Shown: positions 5,045 through 45,820 of the stretch, piece by piece
Numbering within the stretch: position 1 is the stretch's first letter
How the letters are laid out: the number at the start of each line of letters is the position of its first letter
Origin: a virus
Lineage: Duplodnaviria; Heunggongvirae; Uroviricota; Caudoviricetes
Virus record (IMG/VR): IMGVR_UViG_2651869724_000014
Reading direction: 5' to 3' (one strand)
Length of the DNA: 46,907 nt
Translations under genes and position numbers: made by a program
The notes under the pieces: model-generated
The model's database searches: none
Told to the model about the DNA's origin: nothing
What the model saw: the letters and a program-made list of their open reading frames with translations, nothing else

Positions 5045-5200
5045 TTACTCCTCAGGTTCGTAAGCTGTGAAGACAGCGACCTCCGTCTGGCCGGTTCGGA
5101 TTCGTACCTCGCAGAGGTCTTTCCTCGTTACCAGTGCCGTCACAATGACGGTTAAACAGATGACGATCAGGGCGATTAACATCGCCTTTTGCTGCTTCAT
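5045..5200 (-). CDS. hok: Hok/Gef-family type I toxin (51 aa)
   Basis: MKQQKAMLIALIVICLTVIVTALVTRKDLCEVRIRTGQTEVAVFTAYEPEE is a Hok-family sequence. The track ORF 5045-5257 is the same frame extended upstream. Confidence 0.9.
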   Translation of the reverse strand: MKQQKAMLIALIVICLTVIVTALVTRKDLCEVRIRTGQTEVAVFTAYEPEE

Positions 5201-5411
5201 AGCCTGCTTCTCCTTGCCTTTCGGCACGTAAGAGGCTAACCTAGATTTGCCGTTCATAGATTGAGCCTCAGATTAATGTTAAGCGTCTTGCAGGACGCGT
5301 AATGTTAACTGGGGCTTTTCTCTATCTGCCTTTGGTGTTCATGCCTGAGACAGATAGCCTCAAGCACCCGCAGCCATTCTACTTAACTCCCGTTACCTCG
5401 CCAATATGAAA

Positions 5412-11726: not shown

Positions 11727-11784
11727 TTTCTGGTGACGTTTGGCGGTATCAGTTTTACTCCGTGACTGCTCTGCCGCCCTTTTT
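11727..11784 (+). ncRNA. dicF: DicF small RNA (ftsZ-targeting)
   Basis: TTTCTGGTGACGTTTGGCGGTATCAGTTTTACTCCGTGACTGCTCTGCCGCCCTTTTT is the DicF sequence with its terminator, upstream of dicB as in Qin. Confidence 0.85.
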
Positions 11785-17298: not shown

Positions 17299-17374
17299 TC
17301 CTCTGTAGTTCAGTCGGTAGAACGGCGGACTGTTAATCCGTATGTCACTGGTTCGAGTCCAGTCAGAGGAGCCA
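17299..17374 (+). tRNA. asnT: tRNA-Asn (anticodon GTT)
   Basis: TCCTCTGTAGTTCAGTCGGTAGAACGGCGGACTGTTAATCCGTATGTCACTGGTTCGAGTCCAGTCAGAGGAGCCA, 76 nt. Confidence 0.95.
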
Positions 17375-28197: not shown

Positions 28198-28834
28198 CTC
28201 TTGTTGTTTACACGTATTTAATTATCACAAAGAGAAATAACGTCAAATTTACACCATTTTGTTAGAGAGAATGATTCTGATACATTTCTTTATAAATATG
28301 TGCAACGCATATGATAGTATTCACTAACCAAAAACATCTGGCACTCTCCGCGTTACTTATTTTTACGCATTTGTGCTTTTATTTTCACCTGTCAATTTTA
28401 AACTCTATTTTCCAATCTCAACCTGTAAATTGTGCAACACATAACACTCTCTGTTTTATTAGTTTTTTTTCATCAAATTTAGCTATCCCGCCTTACGGCG
28501 GGAATAATTAATACTTCTATTGCCCTTACGGGCCTTTTCTTTACTCTTTTTGTCCTGTGGACGTGAAACCTACACCTTTAATCCAGTTTGCGCCGCTTAA
28601 CCCGGCGTATTATTTTACAACCATACATATATTTCGTATTAATTAATAAGAGGGGCATTTTACATTGGCTTATTTTCTTAAAGACAATGCCCACCTATAC
28701 ACTGCTACGCAGTGTGTGGGGTCTACCGACGGTTGCCTGCCGCAGGCTAAAAGCAAAACCAAGGTCAACGTCAACCCCGAAGTTTTTCTGGCGAAAAACT
28801 AACAGCAGCATTTTTATTTGAGGTTATATTTTTA
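28198..28834. other. Candidate oriT region between the divergent accessory and relaxase genes
   Basis: Direct repeat tgtgcaac(g/a)cata (about 28298 and 28431). Hairpins: cccgcc-ttac-ggcggg (28486-28501), gccc-ttac-gggc (28522-28533), acactgc-ta-cgcagtgt (about 28699-28717). Confidence 0.3.
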
Positions 28835-30304
28835 ATGGCGATTTTCCATCTGGATTTTAAAATTGTGAAACGAAGCGAGGGCATGACTTCCGTTGCGAAA
28901 GCTGCCTACCATGCCCGTACACGTATTACAGATGATCGCATTGGCGAAACATTTGATTTCAGCCACAGAACAGATCTTCATGGTCATATTATATTAGCGC
29001 CCGTTTCCGCACCTGCTCATATTATTGAAAGCTCCTCAGCACTCTGGAATGAAGTTGAAAGAGTGGAACGCCAGAACAACGGTCAAACAGCCCGTTATTT
29101 TGATGTCGCTATTCCCGTAGAACTCAACAATGATGACAAGAAAAAATTGGTTGCCGAATACTGCCAGAAGAACTTTGTTGATAAAGGAATGATTGCTGAT
29201 ATCGCATTCCATGACTTAGACAGTAAGAACCCACACGCTCACGTCATGTTAACCCTGAAAACCATCGGGCCCGAAGGCTTCGGTAAAAAAGACAGAACTT
29301 GGAATGATAAGAAGATGGTTGTTCAGTGGCGTGAGTCGTGGGCCACGATGTCAAACAGCTACCTTGAAGCCGCAGGCAGTGAAGAACGTATCGATCACCG
29401 TTCTCTCAGAACTCAATGTGCTGATGCCCTTGCTCAGGCAGAAGAAGCATTCAGTGCTGAAGAGAAAGCATTCTGGCTTGCCAAAGCAACGGAAACAAAC
29501 CGCCCGGCAATGCAGCGTGTTCATCGTGCTAAATGGAATGATACCGAGTCTCAGGAACAACGAGCTGCTGAACAAGCTCAACGCGATCATCAAATTGAGG
29601 AAGCAAAGAAGGTCTACGCCACATTCAGTGAGCTACCACTGGAAATCGTTGTTGATGTTCGCTCTTACTCTGTTTACCAGCTTCCTGAACCGGAAGAGAT
29701 CGTTCTCCCTGACTACCCGGCAACAACAAAGCAGCAACCGATTCATGCAGAGTCAGAACCATACAGAAGACCAGCCGTAAAATCTTACCATGCCCCCAAT
29801 AAGGTCAGTAAAGTTGGTGCTGCAGCTAAGAAATCCCCTGTTCTGGTTGCACCTGAACCAAATAAATCCACTAAACTGAAAAACCCTTCTTCTCAAAACA
29901 CCAGAGCGATGAAGCGTGCTCCTGTGAGGAGTAGGAAACAGACCAAGCCCCGCCAGAATGGTTTGTTTAAACGTTTCACGCTACTGATAGTAGGATATAT
30001 AAGAGAGAAATTTATATGGGCCAGAATGAAACCCGATACCACTGATGCTGACCATGATAAGCGTATCGCAGAGAACTATGTCTATGATGAAGTGCTGGGT
30101 GTCAATGTTCCACGCTCAGAGTTTGAAAAACGTACCAAATTTAACGATAGTAACTATAAATTAACACCTAATGAGATCAAGCGTTTCCCAAGCCGTCCTA
30201 AGCGAGTTCAATTAGAGTCAGAGAGCGGTATGGATGTCCTCCCTAAAAATAATCAATTTAACTCGTCAAAAATAAACTTCGTCAAACCAAATTTTAGATC
30301 ATAA
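28835..30304 (+). CDS. MobA/MobL-family (MOBQ-type) relaxase
   Basis: MAIFHLDFKIVKRSEGMTSVAKAAYHARTRI (catalytic Tyr region) and FHDLDSKNPHAHVMLT (HxDx..PHxH metal site). Confidence 0.9.
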   Translation: MAIFHLDFKIVKRSEGMTSVAKAAYHARTRITDDRIGETFDFSHRTDLHGHIILAPVSAPAHIIESSSALWNEVERVERQNNGQTARYFDVAIPVELNNDDKKKLVAEYCQKNFVDKGMIADIAFHDLDSKNPHAHVMLTLKTIGPEGFGKKDRTWNDKKMVVQWRESWATMSNSYLEAAGSEERIDHRSLRTQCADALAQAEEAFSAEEKAFWLAKATETNRPAMQRVHRAKWNDTESQEQRAAEQAQRDHQIEEAKKVYATFSELPLEIVVDVRSYSVYQLPEPEEIVLPDYPATTKQQPIHAESEPYRRPAVKSYHAPNKVSKVGAAAKKSPVLVAPEPNKSTKLKNPSSQNTRAMKRAPVRSRKQTKPRQNGLFKRFTLLIVGYIREKFIWARMKPDTTDADHDKRIAENYVYDEVLGVNVPRSEFEKRTKFNDSNYKLTPNEIKRFPSRPKRVQLESESGMDVLPKNNQFNSSKINFVKPNFRS

Positions 30305-36174: not shown

Positions 36175-36561
36175 TTATCGCATTTTGATTTTTACTGATT
36201 CATATTCGTTGATGTGATCCTTAAAAGTGCTTATTGCTTTTAGCAATGACCTGTTAAGTAAACCATTAATCTCCTGTGATGTTTTCCCGTTTCTGACGAC
36301 CACTATATATCCAAGAGTCAGATCTTGTCTTATCATTGGATTCAATGGCTCTATACCTATGCTAATCCCCGTGTTTTTGTATTTAGCAACCGGATACCCA
36401 ACTGAACTATGGATAACAATATTGCCGCTATCTGCAAGCCTTGATAACATTCTGTCGCTGTATATCGTTTTTCTTAAATCCTGTAAAACAGGGATATAGT
36501 GTTTATCCATGTTTCCTGTCAAAGCTGTAGGCAAGTAGATTTTTGTTTTTATTTTTCGCAT
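36175..36561 (-). CDS. Hypothetical protein, first gene of the DUF4238 operon (128 aa; an alternative ATG at 36597 gives 140 aa)
   Basis: AGGA RBS before the ATG at 36561. No family recognised. Confidence 0.55.
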   Translation of the reverse strand: MRKIKTKIYLPTALTGNMDKHYIPVLQDLRKTIYSDRMLSRLADSGNIVIHSSVGYPVAKYKNTGISIGIEPLNPMIRQDLTLGYIVVVRNGKTSQEINGLLNRSLLKAISTFKDHINEYESVKIKMR

Positions 36562-36644
36562 GATATTTTTCCTGTTATTGTTTTTATTTAATACCATGCA
36601 ACTAATAATAATATCAAAAATATTTATTATATTTTATAGGTGTT

Positions 36645-36913
36645 TTATAACATCTGTGATTTTATAGTTTCTTCACTCATCTGTGTGAGTTCTGAAACCA
36701 GACGAATATAAATATTTTTCAACCTGTCTTTATCACAACGACGTACAGACTCTGATAACAGATAATGACTATAATTATTGACACAAATGTTGTTGCCGTT
36801 TTCAATAGTTAATTTCAATCCAAGTTCTGTATCTTCTACTTTTTTATAATACAGATCATAAATGGTGTTTTATCATGTGGATGGAAGAGTGTGATCATTT
36901 TGATATTGTTCAT
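36645..36913 (-). pseudogene. Possible frameshifted small gene (about 88 codons)
   Basis: MNNIKMITLFHPHDKTPFMICIIKK* continues in another frame as YKKVEDTELGLKLTIENGNNICVNNYSHYLLSESVRRCDKDRLKNIYIRLVSELTQMSEETIKSQML. The frame switches at an A/T homopolymer near 36838-36846. Confidence 0.3.
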
Positions 36914-37020
36914 TATATTTTTCTTTTATTATTTTATTACTACTTAATACTCTATCGTAAGTGTAAAAATCAAATATATCTGTGTTTTCCTCATGCTTTT
37001 ACTTATTATTTTTAAACTAC

Positions 37021-37318
37021 TTTTTGAAAAAATCTTTATCTCTGTGCTGACGCACGGCTACGCCCTGACACTGATATTTTTATTTTATTCATCTCCTGTC
37101 TTTTAAATAAAAAGAAAAGTACTCGATCATTGTTTGATCTCTTTTCCTCATGATGCTGAATTTAGATCCTATGTTTAAACATAGTTTTTCCCTTTAGACA
37201 TATAGCATTTGCTCTTAAACGTATAGGAAAACTATATCTTTGATAGCAGCACTTCGTGATTGTTGCGAACAATCACTCTGCTGAACAGGGCTTGTTCCTG
37301 TTAATGATGGATTTTTCA
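37021..37318. repeat. Non-coding repeat unit, copy 1
   Basis: Shares with 37497-37808 a GC-rich box (37042-37076), a palindrome (37169-37184), a promoter-like block and two hairpins (37247-37283, 37285-37301). Confidence 0.8.
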
Positions 37319-37496
37319 ATTAATGATTTTTTCCATATAAATTACTGCCTGTAATCAATTACAAGCGTTTTAAGTATGAAGATAGTTATATGTGTCACCT
37401 TCATGCTTCCAACGTCTTAGCAAGCTTCCTGTGCGGTTTATTAACAGCTTATAGAAAACTATTACTTATATTTATTCTTACCTGATACATTCAATT

Positions 37497-37808
37497 ATTT
37501 TTTTGAAAATACATACATTGTGCTGGCGCACGGCTACGCCCCTGATACTGGTATAAAAATATTTTCCTTGTTCATCTATAATGCATTAATGTTTTATCAG
37601 TGAAAAATAAATAGATCAGTATAAAGATTATTCCCTCCACCGAGTTAGAACTCAGATCTTATGCTTGAATATAACATCTTCCCTCTGACATATAGCATTT
37701 GCTCTTAAACACATAGGAAAACTATATCCTTAGTAGCAGCACTTCGTGATTGTTGCCAACAATCACTTTGCTGGACAGGGCTTGCCCCTGTTAATGATGG
37801 ATTTATCC
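37497..37808. repeat. Non-coding repeat unit, copy 2
   Basis: GC-rich box at 37518-37554. The block from 37681 onward is near-identical to copy 1. Hairpins at 37737-37773 and 37775-37791. Confidence 0.8.
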
Positions 37809-37875
37809 AAAAAAAGATCGCGTCGAAGACGCATATAAATTAAAAGGAATATTAATTAAGCTCTCACACTTAAAG

Positions 37876-37912
37876 CAGCGGTTCGTGATTGTTCGAAACA
37901 ATCACTTCGCTG
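37876..37912. repeat. Third copy of the 37-nt interrupted hairpin
   Basis: cagcg-gttc-gtgattgtt-cga-aacaatcac-tt-cgctg. The inner 9-bp stem is identical to copies 1 and 2, and the outer stem carries a compensatory A-T to G-C change. Confidence 0.75.
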
Positions 37913-38060
37913 ATAGCAGTTATTAAGGAATACAATGCCCCCTGTAAAACCACTAAAACATAACGCAAAAGTAAAGCTGGACTCTCTTAACTTCTTACTA
38001 ATTATTTAATTATAAGCATAGTCCCGGACCAGTAAAATCGCGGCTTCACAACTTTTTTTC

Positions 38061-38144
38061 CTATGTTCGAACATAGCAAACTCCTATGTTCAAACATAGA
38101 TCCGTCCTATGTTCGAACATAGCAAGATCTATGTTCGAACATAG
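38061..38144. promoter_or_regulatory. Array of four 16-bp palindromes CTATGTT(C/T)(G/A)AACATAG upstream of the winged-helix gene
   Basis: Sites at 38061-38076, 38084-38099, 38107-38122 and 38129-38144 (spacing 23, 23 and 22 bp). A fifth site lies at 37169-37184. Confidence 0.7.
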
Positions 38145-38268
38145 TTTTTTTAACATATAACATTGTCATAAGAATATACTTTCTATTTTATTTATAGTTC
38201 TACTATTGACTTTCACTTTTTTGCATAGTATTAAAATAGATATAACAAAAATAATAAGAGGGAATAAT

Positions 38269-39003
38269 ATGAATACACCAGATGCTGATCTATTACACTT
38301 ATTTGAATCATTAACTACCGAGCAAAAGATTGATATCGCAAGACGCTTACTACAAAACAAAGAAATAAAATCAACGACAGTTATTTCTTCTGAGGAAGAT
38401 AAAGCTATTTCGTTTTCACAACCTTATGTATTTGCTTTTACTTCCAACTTTCGTGTGTTCTCTGATCTTGACATATCCAAGAATGAATTCCGTGTATTAA
38501 CCTATATTTTGGAGTATATGGAGTTTGGAAATCTGATCAATCTTTCACAATCATCGCTGTGTAAAGCACTGAATATCGCCTCCGGTAATATGTCTAACAT
38601 TTTTAAAAAACTCAGACAGAAAGGAATACTTGTAGAGCATCATGGTCATCTCTATATCAACTCTAACATTTTCGCAAAAGGGATGAGTCATCAACTGGAT
38701 CAGAAACGTAAAGAACAGTTGAGCAACGCTCGCAATCTTTGCGCAGAAATAGAACAGTATCCAGAAAGTTATTCAGCTATGTCAAAAAGTGAAAGAAGAA
38801 CCCTATCCTTAGAAACTGAGACCAAAGAAATCTATACTGACGCATTTGTTTTCAGTAAGAAGAAAAAGAATAACGCTGTTCCTAATCCCAATAACAGCAT
38901 ACATATTGATAAACCACGAAAAGTATATAAAAGAACAAAGGAAAACGAGGAAGCAAGGAGGAACTCTGTTGACGCAGACTCTCATATGCAGAAAGTATCC
39001 TGA
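38269..39003 (+). CDS. Winged-helix DNA-binding protein (RepL/MarR-like; candidate replication/maintenance regulator)
   Basis: KNEFRVLTYILEYMEFGNLINLSQSSLCKALNIASGNMSNIFKKLRQKGILVEH. The ATG at 38269 has an upstream GAGGG. Confidence 0.65.
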   Translation: MNTPDADLLHLFESLTTEQKIDIARRLLQNKEIKSTTVISSEEDKAISFSQPYVFAFTSNFRVFSDLDISKNEFRVLTYILEYMEFGNLINLSQSSLCKALNIASGNMSNIFKKLRQKGILVEHHGHLYINSNIFAKGMSHQLDQKRKEQLSNARNLCAEIEQYPESYSAMSKSERRTLSLETETKEIYTDAFVFSKKKKNNAVPNPNNSIHIDKPRKVYKRTKENEEARRNSVDADSHMQKVS

Positions 39004-44195: not shown

Positions 44196-44414
44196 TTATG
44201 CAGCGTTCTGGCGTGAGTTTCGAATAGTCGCGTCAATCCATTCATCAATCTCACTTTCAATGAATGCCACCGCTCTTATCCCTGTTTTCACCTGCGATGG
44301 AAACCGTCCGGCTTTAATCAGTTCGTAAATCCACGTTTTTCCAAATCCGGTGCGTTTTATTACTTCTGGTAAACGGATAAACGTTGTCTTTGCTTTTATT
44401 TCTCTTTTAACCAT
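44196..44414 (-). CDS. alpA: AlpA-family transcriptional regulator / excision-control protein
   Basis: FIRLPEVIKRTGFGKTWIYELIKAGRFPSQVKTGIRAVAFIESEIDEWI. Confidence 0.85.
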   Translation of the reverse strand: MVKREIKAKTTFIRLPEVIKRTGFGKTWIYELIKAGRFPSQVKTGIRAVAFIESEIDEWIDATIRNSRQNAA

Positions 44415-45795: not shown

Positions 45796-45820
45796 GTTCG
45801 AGTCCAGTCAGAGGAGCCAA
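45796..45820. repeat. attR core (copy of the asnT 3' end)
   Basis: gttcgagtccagtcagaggagccaa, identical to 17351-17375. Confidence 0.85.

Follow-up and report, generated by a model that had tools for sequence, protein, structure and literature searches.

The stretch free of open reading frames (ORFs) that lies upstream of the initiator-like gene in the window (the whole 46,907 nt of DNA analysed) is a real, strongly conserved and previously unannotated control region, the anatomy, conservation, covariation and strand asymmetries of which are directly apparent from the comparisons reported here. With a probability of about one in three, the region may be a transcribed sense/antisense leader controlling the initiator operon or the adjacent origin.

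Anatomy and distribution of the region

The window carries at tRNA-Asn (17299-17374) a 28 kb ROD21-like island of the EARL family, the last 24 nt of the tRNA gene being repeated at 45796-45819 as a direct repeat of its 3' end, the mode of integration that characterises this family. The EARL gene set is likewise present, comprising an integrase, an AlpA-type directionality factor (an AlpA-like 72-aa ORF lies at 44196-44414), TraD, a MOBQ relaxase (NF041496 match, E 3.6e-75) and an H-NS homologue. The annotation of IE3 from enteropathogenic Escherichia coli (EPEC) E2348/69, counted among the EARL islands (PMC6035254), lists the same set, and over the part compared the ORF-free region shares 98.6% identity with its counterpart in IE3. 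ROD21-like islands include ROD21 itself (Salmonella Enteritidis), IE3 and relatives of ICEKp258.2 (Klebsiella ST258). The repeated module described below is their most conserved non-coding part, has no entry in Rfam or in genome annotation, and is a candidate new RNA family.

As the first-pass annotation had stated, ORFs of 60 aa or more are lacking from 36598-38165. At 57 aa, the longest one there (minus strand, 36645-36818) is left over from a conserved small divergent gene, represented here by a minus-strand pseudogene (36645-36913) that is recorded in RefSeq as frameshifted in E2348/69. The gene, which normally codes for 81-110 aa starting MNNIK, is intact in three of the other loci (L002, L003 and L073), and all of its homologues are annotated as 'hypothetical'; an AlphaFold model of the small neighbouring protein, of mediocre quality (pLDDT 67), was all-beta with best matches that were CooT-like, and gave no hint of nucleic-acid binding. 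The region sits between this decayed gene and a RepL/O-like winged-helix gene of the SEN1990 family (38269-39003, + strand), identified by homology (PMC10655114).

The two repeat units proposed earlier were confirmed, with a 160-nt core at 37158-37317 (unit A) that is 84% identical to 37648-37807 (unit B). The parts of the module follow one another in the order GC box, promoter-like block, hairpin HP1, hairpin HP2, a small hairpin and the GC-rich hairpin HP3, and downstream of the modules lie a promoter-less class II HP1, an invariant 38-nt block, four 16-bp palindromes and the initiator gene's own promoter. Unit A has decayed 3' of HP2, with loss of the small hairpin and HP3. HP3, the small hairpin with its DnaA-box-like site, the 38-nt block and the four palindromes plus a weaker fifth had all escaped the first reading of the sequence. 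Clustering of GATC in the region was marginal (8 sites vs 3.9 expected, P about 0.05).

Elements in this order were also found in 15 Enterobacterales species-level genomes, the loci being fetched through RepL, and in roughly a seventh of complete E. coli genomes (777/5426), with between one and four modules per locus. The module precedes four otherwise unrelated initiator alleles, the three compared pairwise sharing 34-38% identity, and the inverted or palindromic repeats are different for each of the four; the partner of the module would thus not be the initiator protein.

Pairing and sequence constraint in the hairpins

HP1 was found on the + strand at exactly the three sites claimed for it, with loops gcg, gcc and cga: two class I copies (37247-37283, with outer stem CAGCA/TGCTG, a 4x2 internal loop and inner stem GTGATTGTT/AACAATCAC; and 37737-37773, recovered by pattern match, alignment and folding), and a class II copy (37876-37912) with outer stem CAGCG/CGCTG and no promoter block in front. 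The pattern GTGATTGTTNNNAACAATCAC had three matches in the window, where chance alone would give 0.05. The exchange of A-T for G-C noted in the outer stem proved to be a consistent difference between the two classes, and among 93 unique variants the position concerned was occupied by A-T in 39, G-C in 30, G·U in seven and A·C in four. The inner stem behaves differently: no variation is seen at seven of its nine pairs, so that it is not simply a free-evolving helix, and an invariant inner stem with a variable loop is a pattern better suited to recognition by sequence than to an unconstrained RNA helix. HP1 position 8 shows a U-A to C-G switch.

HP2 follows at 37285-37301 and 37775-37791 (+ strand), its closing pair being G·T in copy 1 (G·U in a + strand RNA) and G-C in copy 2; across the homologues its stem takes at least five different forms, all of them compensated. 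The small hairpin UGGAUUUAUCCA (37798-37811, + strand) overlaps the DnaA-box-like TTATCCAAA, which has one mismatch to TTATCCACA and was the only such site detected in the region, and its surroundings, TTAATGATGGATTTATCCA, are near-invariant. HP3 (37819-37833) is switched between GC and UA in half of the sequences (36/35). A small leader peptide (MMDLS...) reading across HP3 was considered and rejected because loop variants of 3 or 4 nt in the alignment shift its reading frame.

In an alignment of 73 distinct homologous units, 96.6% of cells were paired and seven of the 25 pairs had changed on both sides, and none of 500 shuffles reached the observed covariation score; RNAalifold independently recovered the same hairpins. 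With a covariance model built from these units, unit B reached 174 bits (E 5e-29) and unit A 142 bits (E 3e-23), and the third, class II HP1 had a score of 33 bits. A search of Rfam 15 brought no related family to light: there were zero matches in 36400-38400 at gathering thresholds, and with E up to 10 only chance microRNA-type matches on the palindromes. The earlier proposition that pairing rather than sequence is conserved is supported by the level of pairing and the two-sided changes, with the caveat that the inner stem of HP1 is constrained as sequence.

The strand on which the hairpins act was approached through the mispaired intermediates. Read on the + strand, G·U-type intermediates numbered 19-20 vs 5-11 of the A·C type, the corresponding figures for the HP1 outer stem being 14 vs 7. 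A 111-nt + strand RNA folded into exactly the hairpins of the module (-34.2 kcal/mol, z = -3.85), and the unit, as DNA, folded far better than shuffles on both strands (z = -5.7 and -7.2). Taken together, the promoter geometry, the + strand wobble bias and the terminator-like hairpins of the opposite strand (vide infra) would favour RNA over single-stranded DNA as the form in which the structures operate.

Transcription signals and the leader model

The promoter-like block occupies 37197-37238 in copy A (+ strand; -35 TTGCTC at 37209-37214, an 18-nt spacer and -10 TATATC at 37233-37238) and 37687-37728 in copy B (+ strand; -35 at 37699-37704, -10 at 37723-37728), giving predicted starts at about 37245 and 37735 respectively. 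The block, TTGCTC-18-TATATC, was near-invariant in loci fetched through RepL and not by means of the block itself; in alignment A3 the conservation of the 18-mer used as a probe is in part a product of how the alignment was made, but it was seen independently in these RepL-anchored loci. Positions 2 and 4 of the -10-like hexamer never vary, its natural variants include TATAAT and TATACT, a conserved purine lies 7 nt beyond it, and its spacing to HP1 is fixed, with the intervening 8 nt freely variable. In the E. coli type of the module the -10-like hexamer, TATATC, is without the usual final T, and a consensus promoter scan did not call TTGCTC-18-TATATC as a promoter. The 40-nt block is conserved beyond what a promoter needs, and in one locus (L151) it has been lost with all of the hairpins kept. 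In metagenomes searched with an 18-mer probe (130 matches, 56 chance hits being excluded), HP1 came after 72 of the 73 genuine promoter blocks.

A separate candidate within the block, a lambda nut site (boxA GCTCTTA plus boxB) suggested by GCTCTTAAA, was rejected: the boxB-like hairpin, TATAG-GAAAA-CTATA, had no covariation support, one-sided changes breaking its pairing in several sequences with none compensated, and no conserved promoter was found upstream of the boxA-like site.

On the minus strand HP3 is followed by a T-run and is terminator-like, an A-run standing before it on the + strand, and in the decayed unit A its place is taken by another minus-strand terminator-like hairpin (37347-37366). 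A neutral terminator scan called HP3 as a minus-strand terminator in all four divergent loci scanned, and called a further hairpin, HP4, in both of the scanned loci that carry it, as against 0.2-0.7 such calls expected; the minus-strand tails are T-rich (0.5-0.6 vs a background of 0.31). The invariant AT-rich block ACTCTCTTAACTTCTTACTAATTATTTAATTATAAGCA (37981-38018) includes a minus-strand TATAAT (38014-38009), with TTTACT (38036-38031) 16 nt upstream. A minus-strand promoter match (10/12) was called in the window, not in L007, and is a weak indication, being only a consensus match in AT-rich DNA, where chance matches are expected. The stability of the candidate antisense RNA was unremarkable (z = -1.2).

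Beyond this block lie the four 16-bp palindromes CTATGTTCGAACATAG, spaced by 23, 23 and 22 nt (38061-38144, or 38061-38151 with the T7 that follows), to which the initiator-like protein probably binds; palindromes 3-4 together with the T-run are terminator-like on the + strand. A single relative with two mismatches, CTATGTTTAAACATAG, occurs in unit A (37169-37184), and has a counterpart there in many loci, which in others is degenerate. The initiator gene has in addition its own proximal promoter-like site (38206-38234, + strand; TTGACT-17-TATTAA), conserved in 14 loci.

In the leader model the promoter and the transcript of each strand, like the effect on regulation, are inferred. Each module would possess a sigma-70/sigma-S-type promoter, TTGCTC-18-TATATY, at which a + strand RNA would start one or two bases before HP1 and so open with HP1, HP2, the small AUGGAUUUAUCCAU hairpin and HP3; it would continue, meeting no intrinsic terminator, via the second HP1 copy to the four palindromes and the initiator gene. 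The opposite strand would be transcribed too, as a countertranscript of roughly 190 nt (about 38001 to about 37812) starting near the TATAAT of the invariant block, including the second HP1 copy in antisense, with a loop of the YUNR type, and ending at HP3 and its U-tract. The hairpins might thus serve both to stabilise the 5' end of the sense leader and as the recognition stem-loops of a sense/antisense pair, which would govern the amount of transcription arriving at the initiator operon or the adjacent origin-like repeats, in the manner of the countertranscripts of many plasmid replicons.

Control of an initiator by countertranscripts is exemplified by pT181 RNAI/II, pIP501 RNAIII, R1 CopA/CopT and ColE1 RNAI/RNAII. 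The island region resembles such systems in having a structured leader upstream of an initiator gene, a predicted convergent short unit ending within the leader in a hairpin plus U-tract, YUNR-type loops on the stem-loops of the antisense strand, a terminator-like structure just before the gene, and adjacent repeats that are putatively bound by the initiator. It differs from them in that its sense promoter and hairpin module occur in 1-4 tandem copies, the same hairpin is found twice on the sense strand with stems of invariant sequence, an additional promoter belonging to the gene itself lies beyond the repeats, on their downstream side, and the element is an integrated island, with an initiator-like gene whose role in replication is putative.

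Lambda-type origins provide a second point of reference, their four dyad-symmetric iterons, located inside the O gene, being bound by the O protein. In the island four palindromes about two helical turns apart similarly adjoin a winged-helix O/RepL/DnaD-like gene, the repeat sequence is allele-specific, an AT-rich block is adjacent, and PHROG and Pfam matches of the initiator-like genes back the comparison. The island repeats are, however, upstream of the gene and not inside it, replication of the island is putative, and deletion of SEN1990 left ROD21 copy number unchanged under laboratory conditions (PMC10655114). This last observation, like the tandem arrangement of 1-4 modules, remains unexplained by the leader model.

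Published RNA-seq data from Salmonella Enteritidis indicated low transcription across this intergenic region (PMC10655114). Beyond that signal no transcript data for the region were found in the literature, and in those supplements of an EPEC Hfq RIL-seq study that could be searched nothing lay at the coordinates of the region. A search for trans targets elsewhere in the window returned only chance-level 10-13-mers complementary to the + strand RNA.

Competing readings of the module

HP1 and HP2 with the preceding block may, rather tentatively, represent a new family of structured nucleic-acid elements, their invariant stems being read by a conserved host machine such as RNA polymerase (as with put RNAs) or the priming apparatus. 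If so, HP1-HP2 would be a common switch turning on both the replication-type and the transfer modules of ROD21-like islands after excision or entry into a new cell.

Somewhat unlikely, though with several points in its favour, is the reading of the hairpins as single-stranded-DNA initiation signals (ssi or primosome-loading sites), which would prime the complementary strand after conjugative entry or at an adjacent iteron-type origin and be recognised by conserved enzymes of the host, for instance DnaG, PriA or RNA polymerase. A conserved host partner would follow from the stems being invariant across genera despite diverging island proteins, and from a single module serving such dissimilar initiator alleles. 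Every copy has the same orientation, copies adjoin both the origin-like repeats and the oriT-like region near traD, the DNA folds of both strands far exceed those of shuffles (vide supra), and the island is mobilisable through its MobQ relaxase, and hence passes through a single-stranded stage. Like ssi and Frpo-type elements, the hairpin-rich non-coding units of ~300 bp stand in one orientation on a conjugatively mobilised element. The units nevertheless lack the long imperfect hairpin that in Frpo-type elements rebuilds the -35 and -10: whole-unit DNA folds of both strands gave only local hairpins and left the promoter block unpaired, and an Frpo-type single-stranded promoter was consequently rejected. 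The promoter-like block lies immediately before HP1 and is correctly spaced, and the terminator-like features of the opposite strand indicate an organisation at the level of RNA.

It is improbable, for its part, that HP1 and HP2 form a put-like cis-acting RNA, which would make RNA polymerase resist Rho-dependent and intrinsic termination in long AT-rich leaders and thereby let transcription reach the initiator operon or mobQ. The putL RNA of phage HK022 is about 70 nt long, with two stem-loops, and lies just downstream of PL (PMC9378689). The island module has a comparable geometry, with two adjacent, internal-looped stem-loops (about 55-60 nt) placed 1-2 nt past the predicted start and a long transcription unit ahead. 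In some islands HP1 and HP2 also head the long traD-mobQ leader, oriented as mobQ, so that the module stands before two leaders (~0.5 kb to the initiator gene, 0.7-0.9 kb to mobQ); the invariant stems would suit a host partner such as RNA polymerase, which is plausible here as for put, and a + strand terminator-like structure (palindromes 3-4 and T7) lies downstream. The likeness is, however, one of geometry, and both the copy-number pattern of the tandem modules and the second, promoter-less HP1 without HP2 have no counterpart in put.

A similarly low probability attaches to the proposal that a dimeric repressor, island-encoded or host, binds the inner palindrome of HP1, GTGATTGT-N5-ACAATCAC, as a double-stranded operator closely following the promoters, with the hairpin incidental and the units forming a promoter/operator array. 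Its half-sites are invariant about a variable centre, it would lie at about +10 to +30 of the predicted promoter, and near traD the palindrome is present again at another promoter region. Against this, the outer arms pair across an asymmetric spacer, 4x2 in all copies, and covary between the two classes, and position 8 shows compensation from U-A to C-G. One healthy lineage moreover has its half-sites one base further apart, the HP1 loop being longer by that base with its flanks intact and HP2 compensated. The asymmetric loop and this lineage would count for a hairpin over a rigid double-stranded site, and the adjoining HP2 and HP3 clearly covary.

Very unlikely, in turn, is the suggestion, faintly made at first reading, that the GC box is the oriT nick site of the island's MobQ relaxase, with the hairpins as leading-region elements. 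The box is indeed present twice on the + strand, at 37042-37076 (a short hairpin, GTGC-tgac-GCAC, then GGCTACGCCCT) and 37518-37554 (identified by sequence comparison), the portions at 37043-37065 and 37519-37541 being 96% identical, and its core GGCTnCGCCCT is kept across genera amid otherwise variable DNA. RSF1010/Ti-type nick sites have the core GCG/CCCT (GCGCCCT), with an inverted repeat about 8 nt before it. In the GC box a 4-5-bp repeat precedes GGCTACG/CCCT, CG/CCCT coming 7 nt after the short hairpin, so that the core (ACGCCCT) matches at six of seven positions. The authors of the SEN1990 study also placed a possible oriT of ROD21 in this region (PMC10655114).

Against this, the loci examined have up to two full copies of the box each, every unit of a four-unit array (L016) has a shortened one, and tandem oriTs would be expected to recombine; an oriT would rather be a single site beside the relaxase gene, between it and the traD-type gene, whereas the box is multicopy and 8 kb from mobQ. 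Its flanking hairpin is inconstant, the repeat being exchanged for another hairpin in some loci and its loop tolerating a 26-nt insert, and CGCCCT is also found inside ordinary hairpins elsewhere in the island. An oriT role for the ORF-free region is rendered the more unlikely by a better candidate adjoining mobQ, namely a block of ~60 nt in the traD-mobQ spacer (28685-28753), directly upstream of mobQ, with an imperfect inverted repeat of 13-16 bp. In the window this block is identical to the copy on a Klebsiella plasmid (L003) and near-identical to those of seven other loci, and its position is that expected from the traD/oriT/traA synteny of Ti-type systems.

That the repeats are merely functionless, decaying duplications can be dismissed almost entirely: unit A has lost the elements past HP2 and degenerate units occur in some loci, yet the blocks are near-invariant both across genera with 80% identical initiator proteins and across the alleles that are 34-38% identical in pairwise comparison, compensatory changes have accumulated, and HP1 stands where expected after virtually every genuine promoter block from the metagenomes.

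Organisation and distribution of the module

The repeats and hairpins reported in the first-pass annotation, including the two repeat units (A, 37021-37318; B, 37497-37808), were all confirmed in the sequence, and the finding is both real and broader than was then described: the element is a control module of ROD21-like islands, conserved, rich in hairpins and missing from annotation. The pattern of the three-copy hairpin HP1 was matched three times against 0.05 expected, and a covariance model built from homologues gave scores of 174 and 142 bits for the two units and 33 bits for the lone third hairpin; Rfam holds no family for the module. Of the surrounding stretch, taken to be free of ORFs, the left 270 nt are the remnant of a small conserved minus-strand gene, intact in other islands (81-110 aa).

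The window DNA is enterobacterial chromosome, in which a 28-kb island sits at tRNA-Asn (17299-17374), the final 24 nt of which are repeated at 45796-45819. Over the ORF-free region, identity to the matching stretch of island IE3 of EPEC E2348/69 is 98.6%; IE3 is listed among the Enterobacteriaceae-associated ROD21-like (EARL) islands (PMC6035254). RefSeq genes of the E2348/69 island comprise an integrase, pilV, pilin, TraD, the MobQ relaxase, a 'replication/maintenance protein RepL', a truncated H-NS-like protein, an AlpA-family regulator and a DUF6387 protein; a full-length H-NS homologue is encoded in the window itself. The relaxase gene is intact in the window (28835-30304) and has an internal stop in E2348/69 (L001 12238-13707), where the 263-aa gene, DUF4756 and full-length H-NS retained after RepL in the window are truncated or missing. 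Rfam matches across the window were STnc100, AgvB, sok, DicF and two tRNAs; the small RNAs, all outside the island (654-906, 5195-5369 and 11728-11779: AgvB beside STnc100, sok and DicF), point to prophage or cryptic-prophage DNA in the left part of the window.

Fifteen loci were fetched through the RepL protein (80-99% identical), one genome per species, from Citrobacter, Brenneria, Pectobacterium, Dickeya, Buttiauxella, Mangrovibacter, Phytobacter, Enterobacter and others, and extra loci were taken from plasmids, metagenomes and viral contigs. All fetched loci share one order of elements, opening with a GC box (one or two short hairpins, then GGCTnCGCCCT) and, often, a single palindrome related to those before the gene, followed by a near-invariant 40-nt promoter-like block (TATAGCATTTGCTCTTAAAC..ATAGGAAAACTATAT), eight variable bases, and HP1 with its 5-bp outer stem, asymmetric 4x2 internal loop and 8-9-bp inner stem. 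Thereafter come HP2, a small hairpin (TTAATGATGGATTTATCCA) containing a one-mismatch DnaA box, an A-rich linker and the GC-rich hairpin HP3; 60-90 nt beyond HP3 lies a second HP1 with no block before it (class II, as distinct from the class I copies behind the block), then HP4 (GTGCC...GGCAC) in some loci, an invariant AT-rich block, four palindromic repeats at 22-23-bp spacing, and a proximal promoter-like site preceding the winged-helix RepL-like gene (38269-39003, + strand).

Unit B is complete in the window (37497-37840), while unit A has lost everything beyond HP2 and carries a different hairpin at 37347-37366. Each locus has one to four block-plus-hairpin modules, and in two loci, within the L016 and L017 arrays, the block leads into an HP1 that is part class I and part class II, a hybrid that recombination inside HP1 would produce; module number is clearly unstable over evolutionary time. 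These arrays (L016 2450-3640; L017 2770-3640) hold three to four modules with a 325-bp period.

The segment from block to small hairpin occurs in 777 of 5426 complete E. coli genomes, always on the chromosome, and coincides with no annotated feature in the E. coli records listed; the plasmid collection yielded only four records, two of them apparently chromosomal or island sequence. In metagenomes, HP1 followed 72 of the 73 genuine block copies.

Constraint on pairing and on sequence

An alignment of 73 distinct units, covering 25 pairs, had standard pairs in 96.6% of cells compared with 93.7% in shuffles, none of the 500 of which reached the observed value. Changes on both sides were recorded in seven of the 25 pairs, and sliding the partner by one to three columns reduced pairing to 32-52%. 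RNAalifold independently predicted HP1 (both stems), HP2 and HP3. One HP3 pair is GC in 36 and UA in 35 sequences, with double changes at three further pairs, and HP2 exists as at least five compensated stems (ACAGGG/CCCTGT, GGAG/CTCC, ACAGGA/TCCTGT, ATAGGG/CCCTAT and ACAGTGC/GCACTGT). These statistics and compensated stems establish that the hairpins are real.

The compensatory swap noted earlier in the outer stem of HP1 proved to be a stable difference between classes I and II, the innermost pair being A-T in 39, G-C in 30, G·U in 7 and A·C in 4 among 93 unique variants. The proposal that pairing rather than sequence is conserved is thus borne out by covariation for the hairpins at large, but HP1 is constrained as sequence as well: seven of the nine inner-stem pairs are invariant, position 8 being U-A, C-G, U·G or C·A.

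Proposed transcription and competing readings

Intermediates that pair on the + strand (G·U) outnumbered those that pair on the minus strand only (A·C) by 20 to 11 overall, and by 19 to 5 without one recurrent variant. The block has promoter geometry for the + strand (TTGCTC, 18 nt, TATAT(C/T)), hexamer positions 2 and 4 being invariant and natural variants including TATAAT and TATACT; a conserved purine lies 7 nt past the hexamer, and HP1 begins 1-2 nt after it. For RNA from the predicted start, the fold consists of precisely the four hairpins (z = -3.85). On the + strand no U-tract follows any module hairpin, the first terminator-like structure being the last palindrome pair, followed by T7. 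A neutral scan called HP3 a minus-strand terminator in the window, L007, L012 and L003, and likewise HP4 in both of these loci that carry it; terminator sites numbered two per locus in L007, L012 and L003 against 0.2-0.3 from shuffles, and four in the window against 0.7 expected. T makes up 0.5-0.6 of the minus-strand tails behind HP3, class II HP1 and HP4 (background 0.31), and in decayed unit A the corresponding position is occupied by another hairpin that is terminator-like on the minus strand. The invariant block bears, on the minus strand, TATAAT with TTTACT 16 nt upstream, called by the scan in the window only, such matches being expected by chance at this composition.

Taken together, these strand asymmetries suggest that the region is transcribed convergently, and we put the probability that the module acts through transcription, as RNA, at roughly 0.55-0.6. 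Within that reading, a sense/antisense leader arrangement is the favoured, still tentative, possibility: + strand transcription would begin at the block and yield the leader, while an opposing minus-strand RNA of ~190 nt would terminate at HP3. Structured leaders that work with a countertranscript to regulate an initiator gene are a familiar kind of system; the novelty here lies in the element, in its tandem arrangement and in stems that do not vary. A put-like element, also within the RNA reading, is improbable. The region has already been noticed in the literature, though never dissected; no transcript data were found there, and the sole published remark concerns low signal (PMC10655114).

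That the hairpins serve in single-stranded DNA is rather unlikely. The whole unit folded as DNA gave only local hairpins on either strand, a result that excludes an Frpo-type single-stranded promoter and is compatible with simpler priming signals. A purely double-stranded operator is less likely still and fits poorly, because the internal loop of HP1 is asymmetric in every copy and one lineage with otherwise healthy flanks has a loop one base longer.

The invariant block (37981-38018) holds CTCTCTTA, a complement to the initiator gene's ribosome-binding region (38256-38264), which is UAAGAGAG in most loci and UAAGAGGG in the window. The promoter-like block holds the related GCTCTTAAA, which is identical to lambda nutL boxA. 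GATC sites occur in the region at roughly double their density elsewhere in the island (8 sites, 3.9 expected, P ~0.05; stretches 37125-37168, 37614-37658 and 38099-38129), some copies occupying conserved positions beside palindromes.

Initiator alleles and candidate sites for oriT

The RepL-like gene matches RepL marginally (PF05732, 21.5 bits), and also HTH_36 and DnaD_N; its ROD21 homologue, SEN1990, was described in a 2023 study as a winged-helix protein, deletion of which left ROD21 copy number unchanged (PMC10655114). The module (>85% DNA identity) precedes at least three other initiator alleles, encoding a 233-aa protein (PHROG 'replication initiation O-like', E 4e-8), a second 233-aa protein and a 181-aa protein that scores above the cut-off for RepL; pairwise identity among the window allele and the two 233-aa ones is just 34-38%. 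Each of the four alleles is preceded by its own inverted or palindromic repeat set. Directly upstream of the window gene are four perfect or near-perfect 16-bp palindromes, CTATGTTCGAACATAG (38061-38151; 23/23/22-nt spacing, flanked by T7 runs), the place of which is taken by GTTTCC-N5-GGAAAC in L003 and GGTTATT..AATAACC in L012. With four dyad-symmetric repeats two helical turns apart beside an O/RepL-type winged-helix gene, the arrangement resembles a lambda-type origin or an array of iterons or operators of the lambda-O kind. Initiator and repeats vary from allele to allele where the module does not, so the partner of the module is not the initiator, and is either a conserved factor of the island or part of the host machinery. 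Some islands have a block-less HP1 plus HP2 that adjoins traD in mobQ orientation and heads the 0.7-0.9-kb traD-mobQ spacer.

The relaxase is of MobQ/TraA(Ti) type and is paired with a small, divergently transcribed Ti-type TraD. In Ti-type systems oriT lies between the traD-type and relaxase genes. The traD-mobQ spacer here contains a ~60-nt block, CCCACCTATACACTGCTACGCAGTGTGTGGGGTCTACCGACGGTTGCCTGCCGCAGGC, with a long imperfect inverted repeat, which is identical in the window and in the island copy on a Klebsiella plasmid, the flanks of which are ~70% identical, and is conserved in seven further loci; this spacer block (28685-28753, CAATGCCCACCTATACACTGCTACGCAGTGTGTGGGGTCTACCGACGGTTGCCTGCCGCAGGCTAA) is the island's best oriT candidate. 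The earlier suggestion of an oriT in the GC box drew on its core, which comes near the RSF1010 nick core only in the form ACGCCCT; with up to two full copies per locus and shortened ones in every L016 unit, a variable flanking hairpin and a position far from mobQ, the box is unlikely to be the oriT. The traD-mobQ spacer also has two more conserved hairpins, CCCGCCTTACGGCGGG and GCCCTTACGGGC.
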